From a virus (lineage: Duplodnaviria > Heunggongvirae > Uroviricota > Caudoviricetes): a stretch of DNA of 6,371 nt. Where the stretch lies: the IMG/VR virus record IMGVR_UViG_2582580933_000012, positions 1 through 6,371 of that record. One strand, given 5' to 3'. Under the pieces are notes generated by a model that was not told where the DNA came from, searched no databases, and saw nothing but the letters and a program-made list of their open reading frames with translations. Positions 3,792 through 4,542 of the stretch are shown here, one piece after another; positions within the stretch are counted from its first letter, which is position 1; each line of letters starts with the position of its first letter. A program made the translations under genes and the position numbers.

Positions 3792-4178
3792 ATGGCGAAC
3801 ACTAAATCCTACCTGGCAATGCAGGCATGGTTTACCACCCTTATCACTGCGGGATTGAATTTCCTTTTTGACTGGCTTCCTCAATTAGCCTTCTTCAAAT
3901 CATTGGCGCCTGGAGCTGCTGTCGGCTTATCTCATGTGGTAATTCTTCTTATCGCTTACATAGGTTTGCCTACGCTTAATGATGTAAGAATGAAAAGGGA
4001 AATAAAAACGGCCAGAAAATTCATCACGAACTGCCTGGCCAACCCTAACCTAACACCAGACCAAATTGCGCACTACAACCAATGTCTTATCGATCTAGAC
4101 AATAAGCTATTAAAAAACATAAATATTCGTATTGATGCTTTATCTGACGCCGAATCGAAAGCTCAAGCAAACGAGTAG
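3792..4178 (+). CDS. Cassette gene C: small membrane protein (128 aa, two predicted TM helices, hydrophilic C-terminal domain)
   Basis: ATG abuts the B stop (TGA 3789-3791, ATG 3792-3794) with SD AGGAAGG at 3782-3788. Hydrophobic segments AWFTTLITAGLNFLFDWL and AAVGLSHVVILLIAYIGLPTL. Tandem stops TAG TAA. Confidence 0.7.
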   Translation: MANTKSYLAMQAWFTTLITAGLNFLFDWLPQLAFFKSLAPGAAVGLSHVVILLIAYIGLPTLNDVRMKREIKTARKFITNCLANPNLTPDQIAHYNQCLIDLDNKLLKNINIRIDALSDAESKAQANE

Positions 4179-4191
4179 TAACAGTCATAAC

Positions 4192-4542
4192 TTATGATAG
4201 AATCAAGCATATACATCCATCAATAAAGCCTAATGCAGTTTGCAGCTCCTTTCTTATAGTTCCATCTGAGCACCTGCGTTTCTTCGCGATTGAGCGTAGA
4301 GAAACACCAATAACAAAGTGAGCTATGAGCAGCTCATATTCCTCTGGTTTATACTTTCGCAACCGAGCCACACAACCGTCTATCATGATGCCTTCATCAT
4401 CATTACACTGGAGACGTGACTTTTTGCCATGTGGCAAAAGCCCCTTGAAGCCCGCTGCTATCGGTTGCCAATCGACACCGCTATTTTCTGCTGCAGCCCA
4501 TGCCCCCCAGCGATCTAAAACCTCATACATATCACGCCCCAT
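4192..4542 (-). CDS. Q: Late-gene antiterminator Q (QuuD/QuuQ-like, Phage_antitermQ family)
   Basis: Motifs VLDRWGAWAA, IAAGFKGL, SRLQCNDDEGIMIDGCVARL and C-terminal HTH-like CSDGTIRKELQTALGFIDG resemble E. coli DLP12 QuuD as I recall it. ATG 4542 has SD GAGGTG 8 nt upstream (track ORF extends to GTG 4551). Overlaps the rusA 3' end by 11 nt. Confidence 0.85.
   Translation of the reverse strand: MGRDMYEVLDRWGAWAAAENSGVDWQPIAAGFKGLLPHGKKSRLQCNDDEGIMIDGCVARLRKYKPEEYELLIAHFVIGVSLRSIAKKRRCSDGTIRKELQTALGFIDGCICLILS

Follow-up and report, generated by a model that had tools for sequence, protein, structure and literature searches.

The 6,371-nucleotide stretch analysed here (the window; IMG/VR record IMGVR_UViG_2582580933_000012) contains two genes that meet tail to tail. 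Gene C, the last of a three-gene cassette (A, B and C) on the plus strand, converges on the antiterminator gene Q on the minus strand, with only 13 bp between their stop codons. The best explanation, which we hold with a probability of roughly 0.6, is that this junction is the Q-proximal edge of a cargo slot of QuuD-type lambdoid phages. The slot has Q on one side and the late promoter pR' on the other, and is filled here by a terminator-less cassette probably driven by a promoter of the phage backbone. The gap would have no terminator because the cassette entered an otherwise empty Q-pR' site by recombination at a 10/11-bp repeat. The original prediction took the junction for a regulatory arrangement, in which mutual antisense transcription could couple the cassette to lysogeny and damp Q. 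It is partly right on the mechanics, but gives the downstream terminator the wrong role and reads too much into a recombination junction.

The window is the late-control region of an E. coli lambdoid prophage, and is 99.1% identical over its whole length to E. coli O80:H26 strain EC-107. On the minus strand the order is DUF968, RusA, Q, then four tRNAs, an S21-type holin, YdfR, lysozyme and Rz/Rz1; the three plus-strand open reading frames occupy the interval from Q to the tRNAs. Q is a genuine antiterminator. It matches PF06530 (E=1e-45, 154.9 bits with a cutoff of 26), the family named in 10.1101/651190, as well as phrog_79. It is 50% identical to QuuD of the K-12 prophage DLP12 and distantly similar to the Q21 chains of PDB 6P18 and 6JNX (E=4e-4).

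The insertion is delimited by a cargo-free relative, MS20657. There, the Q stop codon TAA is followed by GTTATGAAAAAATCACTAACGCGTACGCAAAAAC…, a hairpin terminator, artAB-like toxin genes and the lysis genes. In a direct alignment the window and MS20657 are 100% identical up to 4185, and the identity resumes at 2621. Both cassette junctions carry an 11-bp sequence of the empty site, ATAAGTTATGA, as a repeat of the form ATAA(G)TTATGA. The G missing from the left copy turns CATAAC of the empty site into CATAAT on the cargo strand. The cassette has a G+C content of 43.4%, against 46-54% (about 50%) in the flanks. Its right end lies 3-6 bp from the stop codon of gene C, so there is no 3' untranslated region, and gene A begins after only 42 bp of cassette sequence. 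At the level of sequence comparison, the empty site and the repeats demonstrate an insertion, as the comparisons below do for the conserved leader and for the recurrence and orientation of cargo.

The complete cassette is present in 37 of 5,426 complete E. coli genomes, at least 99% identical and in varied serotypes and hosts. Another 14 E. coli genomes match only its first 77 nt, abutting the Q gene. These matches, to features annotated as “antiterminator Q”, and a 36-residue “antiterminator” coding sequence called by PGAP had suggested a Q gene split by the cassette. This idea was dropped, as Q of MS20657 has the identical stop codon and just 4 bp overlap. In TUM9757 (L008, 3022-3167) a deletion scar retains about 45 nt of each cassette end, joined at a 7-bp AAGCATC microhomology. 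Such a scar indicates that the cargo can be lost with Q and the leader left intact. Lastly, L053 carries an 84% diverged copy in the same slot, with A, B and C intact.

The convergent ends are where the original prediction placed them, at 4178 and 4192. Gene C closes with TAG (4176-4178) followed by TAA (4179-4181), and the Q stop codon TAA is at 4194..4192. Its claim that no hairpin with a U-tract exists in the gap or in either 3' end is borne out by terminator scanning and folding. The consensus scan found no site on either strand at 3830-4318 and none on the plus strand of the entire window; in the near-identical locus L001, the 3.7 kb past the cassette hold no terminator-like site on that strand. 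Folds of 4130-4260 were not below shuffled sequences in energy on either strand (z = +1.1 and +1.5). Locally there is only one structure, an A/U-rich palindrome of 6 bp (GUCAUA-ACU-UAUGAU, 4184-4198) without a U-tract. As a negative observation, the lack of a terminator has no score against chance; the window gives 8 terminator-like hits in total against 7.3 expected.

Table 1. Features of the window; positions on the minus strand may be given in descending order.
Feature	Position	Strand	Details
Inserted three-gene cassette (cargo-specific DNA)	2622..4184	+	1563 bp
Direct repeat, right copy	4185..4195		late strand ATAAGTTATGA; includes the Q stop codon; identity with MS20657 ends exactly here
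Direct repeat, left copy	2612..2621		late strand ATAA-TTATGA; one G fewer than the empty site
Gap between stop codons of gene C and Q	4179..4191		13 bp; no terminator
Q antiterminator gene, QuuD-like branch of the Q21/Q933W family	4192..4551	-	longest open reading frame; PGAP start ~4542, 116 residues
Invariant 14-mer	2587..2600	-	ACGCGTACGCAAAA; candidate Q-binding element with ACGC direct repeat
Putative cargo promoter	2589..2618	+	-35 TTGCGT 2589-2594, inside the 14-mer; 18-bp spacer; -10 CATAAT 2613-2618
Late-promoter core	2565..2579	-	-10-like TAATCT 2579..2574; TAAGAGT 2571..2565; predicted +1 near 2567
tR', intrinsic terminator of the short late leader	2516..2543	-	AAACCCGC-ATCAA-GCGGGTTT then T-run; hairpin 2543..2523; fold z=-2.5
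Gene A	2664..3542	+	292 residues from ATG 2664 (PGAP start); ribosome-binding site AAAGGA 2650-2655; open from GTG 2631
Gene B	3546..3791	+	81 residues; phrog_27630, 8e-57
Gene C	3792..4178	+	128 residues; phrog_26468, 7e-89
Candidate Rho loading region	4430..4630	+	C-rich, G-poor RNA antisense to Q and rusA; C/G 1.8-4.1; from composition only
Four tRNA genes (CAT, Lys, Thr, Gly)	2089..2398	-	3' of tR'; the late unit starts with them
Lysis cassette (S21-type holin, YdfR/DUF1327, lysozyme, Rz/Rz1)	210..1797	-	late genes under Q control
RusA	4532-4903	-	
DUF968	4916-5965	-	

The slot was surveyed in about 20 loci from many Enterobacterales genera, plus DLP12. Most of them, DLP12 included, carry unrelated cargo in the same place, and this cargo converges on Q in nearly all cases. 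More than 12 different cargo sets were found between the 3' end of Q and an invariant leader. Three cargo genes are present in the window (13 bp from Q stop to cargo stop), in Stx1_499 (30 bp) and in L021 (34 bp). Two are present in WGPS2 (21 bp) and in each of L018, L022, L025, L026, L027, L029, L032, L035, L036 and L037, where the distance goes from a 4-bp overlap to 48 bp. Single genes occupy L031 (22 bp), L034 (10-bp overlap with Q) and E. coli 204446 (about 206 bp), and in DLP12 the cargo is nmpC (189 bp). The convergent loci also include L053.

In terms of known systems, PADLOC assigns both cargo genes of L035 to PD-Lambda-5 and both of L022 to PDC-M53, one gene of L036 to an AriA/NsnB-like ATPase, and gene A of the window to PDC-S42. 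Most other cargo proteins have no match in PADLOC or Pfam. Diverse cargo between conserved flanks is the pattern of a defence or accessory-gene hotspot. No description of this slot between Q and pR' was found in the searchable literature. Near Q of the same type there is further candidate defence cargo. SCU-387 and p11A (L009/L010, 1-2394) have a Dcm methyltransferase 3' of Q, then a convergent pair of a DUF262 protein and a HEPN nuclease. Strain 6409 (L011, 1-1967) has a very large convergent metallophosphoesterase 3' of Q.

The window could also be read as decay, that is, a neutral scar in a cryptic prophage where neither the cassette nor Q is meaningfully expressed. Pseudogenes and hokD are found near the locus, TUM9757 has lost most of the cassette, and DLP12, of the same architecture, is cryptic with its nmpC disrupted by IS5. 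We consider this improbable. Q, the leader, the tRNAs, holin, lysozyme and Rz/Rz1 are all intact; the near-identity of the cassette in 37 genomes and the three intact genes of the diverged copy also speak against it. Furthermore, the same architecture recurs in Shiga toxin (Stx)-converting phages and in IMG/VR viral contigs.

On its other side the slot ends at the late leader, whose most constant element is the 14-mer, invariant in 23 of 23 aligned loci. It occurs in one copy, 3' of Q on the Q strand, in 19 of the 22 loci with a Q homologue (GTDB), as well as in Stx1_499 and Stx2a_WGPS2. Among the genera are Yersinia, Serratia, Providencia, Lonsdalea, Citrobacter, Enterobacter, Raoultella and Buttiauxella. 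The distance between Q and the 14-mer is 1.1-2.9 kb in the 19 Q-anchored loci that carry it; the two are not adjacent there. Seven bases past the 14-mer comes TAnnnTG, in which T, A, T and G are invariant in all 23 loci; the distance from the 14-mer to this late -10 is fixed at 7 bp in 22 of 23. Relative to TAATCT, the 14-mer with its ACGC repeat sits at about -33..-20. The following TAAGAGT is near-invariant across the 23 loci, its last hexamer position not being T, and is a candidate sigma-dependent pause element. It falls at about -4..+3 or +2..+8, as the choice of -10 shifts where both +1 and the pause element fall. TATCTT/TATTGT (2584..2579) was tried as the late -10 and rejected, since it is unconserved in Yersinia, Providencia and others, and the TAnnnT that overlaps it, five bases further downstream, does not vary.

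A GC-rich hairpin with a T-run follows about 25-60 nt past the predicted start in 20 of 23 loci, with stems that vary by lineage. The genes 3' of the leader are always late genes: tRNAs and lysis genes in the window, artAB-like genes in MS20657, stx1 or stx2 in the two Stx phages and essD in DLP12. In the Q21 family, a direct-repeat Q-binding element between -35 and -10 is followed by a -10-like pause element and then by a terminator (10.1101/651190; PMC6606751). By analogy with that family, we read the block at 2516-2600 as pR' plus tR'. DLP12 has a homologous leader, with the variant motif ACGTACGTAAAA in place of the 14-mer. A different motif paired with a 50%-identical QuuD is what protein-site co-evolution would look like. 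The 14-mer is probably the Q-binding element.

Some further observations concern the leader. No Rfam family matches it. The first ~16 nt of its predicted RNA (2563-2578, minus strand) can fold as a GUGG…CCAC hairpin, the inner positions of which vary by lineage (for example GGUC…GAC in Citrobacter and Buttiauxella). The 36-residue “antiterminator” coding sequence mentioned above (WP_086259018.1; window ~2456-2566, minus strand; L001 3930-4040) begins approximately at the predicted +1 of the late leader and spans the tR' hairpin; it is probably an annotation artefact over a regulatory RNA region. Relatives with an unrelated 229-residue Q have the same tRNA region and are homologous to the window from the tR' hairpin onwards. 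This suggests that tR' is a recombination boundary between Q modules too. In MS20657 (L007, 1484-2770) an ArtAB-like AB5 toxin pair, composed of a scabin-related ADP-ribosyltransferase and a subtilase-family B subunit, lies directly 3' of the leader and terminator, the position of stx in Stx phages.

A different placement of pR', at the 3' end of Q, would make the cassette a classical moron antisense inside the late leader, with 2520-2606 as a terminator module. A promoter scan does flag TTGATG-18-TATCAT (4223..4194), which ends at the Q stop, and the published moron site is downstream of pR' (PMC4104026). The candidate was dropped, since TTGATG derives from the conserved codons of a GFIDG motif and TATCAT is unconserved in relatives. 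The block at 2565-2600, by contrast, is invariant across genera, has a canonical TAnnnT, stands always directly upstream of the terminator and late genes, and in DLP12 differs along with Q. A Q-binding element 1.6 kb away from its promoter would also be incompatible with the Q21 loading mechanism. We regard this placement as very improbable.

As for the expression of the cargo, its first gene starts 38-80 bp from the 14-mer in 10 of 11 loci, and 185 bp from it in L021, as judged from open reading frame and 14-mer coordinates. Because the first gene is so near, the cargo promoter would have to overlap the upstream region of pR'. Read along the cargo strand, the 14-mer is TTGCGTACGCGT / TTTTGCGTACGCGT, and the putative -35 hexamer TTGCGT falls within it. 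TTGCGT is followed by TAnnnT in 14 of 23 loci, at 17 bp in 13 of them and at 16 bp in L029, with nine different hexamers. At a spacing of 18 bp there is CATAAT in the window and TAAAGT in L053. The middle positions vary while T, A and T are kept, which points to -10 identity rather than shared ancestry. Cargo transcripts are predicted to begin 14-54 nt before the start codon of the first gene; in the window the start falls at ~2625, about 39 nt before the ATG of gene A. We infer that a weak sigma-70 promoter of the backbone, divergent from pR', drives the cargo, with its -35 inside the probable Q-binding element. In cargo-free MS20657 this promoter would point at Q too.

Alternatively, the 14-mer could be an operator for an activator or repressor of the cargo-strand promoter (CII-like, for instance, as at lambda paQ), and not a Q-binding element. 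Its cover of the -35 would fit, as lambda CII sites straddle a -35, and so would its position, somewhat too far upstream when compared with the Q-binding element of phage 21. Against an operator stand the lack of a second TTGC repeat, the 7-bp distance to the late -10 that is fixed in 22 of 23 loci, a motif that varies with Q type in DLP12, and the retention of the 14-mer next to Q in cargo-free MS20657. This alternative has little chance, in our judgement.

Several points weigh against the slot explanation or its parts. The neighbour of Q is co-oriented in L024, SCU-387 and p11A, so convergence is not absolute. The -35 of the cargo promoter matches the consensus at 3 of 6 positions, and for this reason the promoter scan did not call it; TAnnnT is absent at the expected spacing in 9 of 23 loci. 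As for pR', it has no recognisable -35, only an A-tract where a proximal UP element would sit. In E. coli lineages a second -10-like hexamer overlaps the first, five bases upstream, which leaves +1 and the pause element uncertain. The 14-mer lies further upstream than the Q-binding element of phage 21, with its C:G base pairs at -21 and -13. By raw count, known or candidate defence matches exist in only 4-5 of about 18 cargo sets.

A defence role of A-B-C itself is only putative, given a second copy of the triad beside a lysis cassette. This copy, in another phage (L058, 3489-6669), is 47% identical, with proteins of 288, 81 and 126 residues. It is co-oriented and directly upstream of a holin-like gene, endolysin and Rz/Rz1, and has no 14-mer nearby. 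A-B-C is thus a conserved unit, and its role could be late or lysis-linked rather than defence. In the window, gene A matches the PADLOC candidate defence protein PDC-S42 (3.3e-53), the NCBIfam LAPAL-motif protein NF053583 (1e-66) and phrog_3243. Gene B has a hydrophobic N-terminal stretch, taken by eye as a transmembrane segment, and gene C has hydrophobic stretches, likewise taken by eye as membrane segments; both probably encode small membrane proteins. No Pfam match was found for A, B or C, and no mention of PDC-S42 in the searchable literature.

Regarding the fate of the transcripts, read-through from the cassette into Q is plausible from the layout of the window. Plus-strand RNA antisense to Q and rusA has a C/G ratio of 1.4-4.1, with a peak at ~4480-4600. 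The likeliest end for cassette transcripts would be by Rho, after covering Q, or by collision. From the opposite direction, a strong terminator-like hairpin (6344..6327, minus strand; AACCCGCTTCGGCGGGTT then a T-run) lies upstream of the nin-like genes and of a 92-residue gene, DUF968, RusA and Q. Because of it, early transcription would need antitermination to reach Q, and may come from antiterminated polymerase. We infer that such polymerase would ignore tR', so early transcription would not be expected to stop at 2519-2543. The original prediction had ended early transcription there; the element is instead the conserved late terminator tR', ~25-45 nt past a pR'-like promoter.

A scan of the junction between Q and cargo in 20 loci found a T-tailed hairpin, mostly bidirectional, 0-60 nt from the Q stop in about 12, among them L027, L029, L031, L032, L036, L037, strain 204446 and DLP12. 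The window, Stx1_499, WGPS2, L021, L034 and L035 gave no such hairpin at the junction. With a terminator-like hairpin in about 12 of 20 slots, read-through into Q would be a lineage-specific state, not a conserved one.

These results bear on whether the terminator-less convergence is a selected device, by which cassette antisense RNA or collisions damp Q in the lysogen and early transcription silences the cassette after induction. No intrinsic terminator exists between the genes or for at least 3.7 kb on the plus strand, and the putative backbone promoter aims at Q in most loci. Terminator-less or Q-overlapping slots are also found in Stx1_499, WGPS2, L021, L022, L025, L034 and L035, and the CII-dependent paQ of lambda is a precedent for antisense control of Q (PMC2327240). 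We nonetheless think a selected device rather unlikely. The antisense arrangement is not conserved, given the hairpins of DLP12, 204446 and others, and recombination at the flanking repeats fully accounts for the 13-bp junction. The promoter is weak, and Q is untranscribed in the lysogen, so damping would be relevant only to leaky expression or early induction. As a regulatory reading, antisense coupling is a doubtful one, and it is not needed to explain the sequence.

Under the preferred explanation, the slot at Q and pR', events would run as follows. A cassette that lacks a terminator and leaves no space for a promoter of its own would enter the empty site by recombination at ATAA(G)TTATGA, which includes the Q stop codon. 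It would be transcribed from the weak backbone promoter divergent from pR', the -10 of which lies at the slot boundary. Its transcripts would continue antisense over Q, with a possible effect on Q, until Rho (at the C-rich ~4430-4630) or oncoming polymerase halts them. Q would act in trans at pR' (2579..2565), 1.6 kb away, where it would load onto RNA polymerase and let it pass tR' (2543..2523) into the tRNAs and lysis genes.

A bolder proposal, which must be called speculative and which we think will probably prove wrong, is that one 14-mer serves two promoters. It would be the Q loading site for pR' and the -35 of a divergent promoter for plug-in, promoter-less anti-phage cargo. The cargo would read into Q as a paQ-like antisense RNA in lysogeny. 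Accumulating Q would then occupy the 14-mer, turning late genes on and defence cargo off, so that the phage does not abort its own lytic cycle.

Lastly, the four-tRNA cluster is positioned between tR' and the holin. The tRNA with the CAT anticodon (2323-2398, minus strand) is reported as Met by ARAGORN and, for the same gene in L001, as tRNA-Ile by PGAP.

Accessory and defence genes in the interval from Q to lysis are well known from lambdoid phages. Here they would belong at a different, precisely bounded site on the upstream side of pR', in antisense orientation, a slot whose conservation extends from Yersinia and Providencia to K-12 DLP12 and Stx-converting phages. If it is a true hotspot, the 3' end of Q and the ACGCGTACGCAAAA leader could serve as anchors to harvest candidate defence systems across Enterobacterales. 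Where Stx phages have a Q of this type, the slot separates it from the toxin promoter, and convergent transcription or promoter competition there could affect toxin output and induction.

When compared with known systems, the locus resembles the late cassettes of Q21 and Q933W in its PF06530 Q, in a short leader with an intrinsic terminator directly upstream of the late genes, and in a repeated DNA motif just upstream of the -10. Cargo-free MS20657 has the textbook order, with Q next to the leader, and only genomes of its type do. The window differs in that 1.6 kb of cargo part Q from pR' (1.1-2.9 kb in most relatives). Its motif is of ACGC type and not TGAGCA, lies further upstream, and comes without a recognisable -35.

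DLP12 has the same arrangement of a QuuD-type Q, a convergent lysogenic-conversion gene and a leader (…TGTTAAGAGTGGTTACTTCGTCACACAGCTTAAACCCGCC…GCGGGTTTTT) upstream of the holin. The lc porin gene of phage PA-2 is grouped with this quuD-nmpC-essD arrangement. Unlike the window, DLP12 carries a porin gene, nmpC, with about 370 bp of its own upstream region. The 189 bp between quuD and nmpC contain GC-rich hairpins flanked by A- and T-runs, in the style of bidirectional terminators, whereas the 13 bp of the window contain none.

Classical lambdoid morons such as stx are placed downstream of pR' (Juhala et al. 2000, as cited in PMC4104026). Like them, the cassette is extra DNA of lower G+C content in the interval from Q to lysis, missing in close relatives and presumably expressed from the prophage. 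The classical site, however, is co-oriented, Q-controlled and 3' of pR', while this slot is upstream of pR' and antisense; the cassette also lacks its own terminator and, apparently, a complete promoter. Phage-borne defence hotspots likewise have conserved flanks around highly variable cargo, with known, candidate and unknown defence genes at one position. They differ in phage family and position, and cargo in this slot is fixed in orientation and seemingly promoted from the backbone.

Finally, lambda paQ is also a promoter aimed at Q, and a transcript of the kind proposed here would likewise lower Q, favouring or stabilising lysogeny. The lambda promoter sits within the Q gene, requires CII and yields a short RNA (PMC2327240). 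In the window, by contrast, the antisense RNA would come from read-through at the end of a protein-coding cargo operon, and roughly half of the related phages would block it by a terminator-like hairpin.

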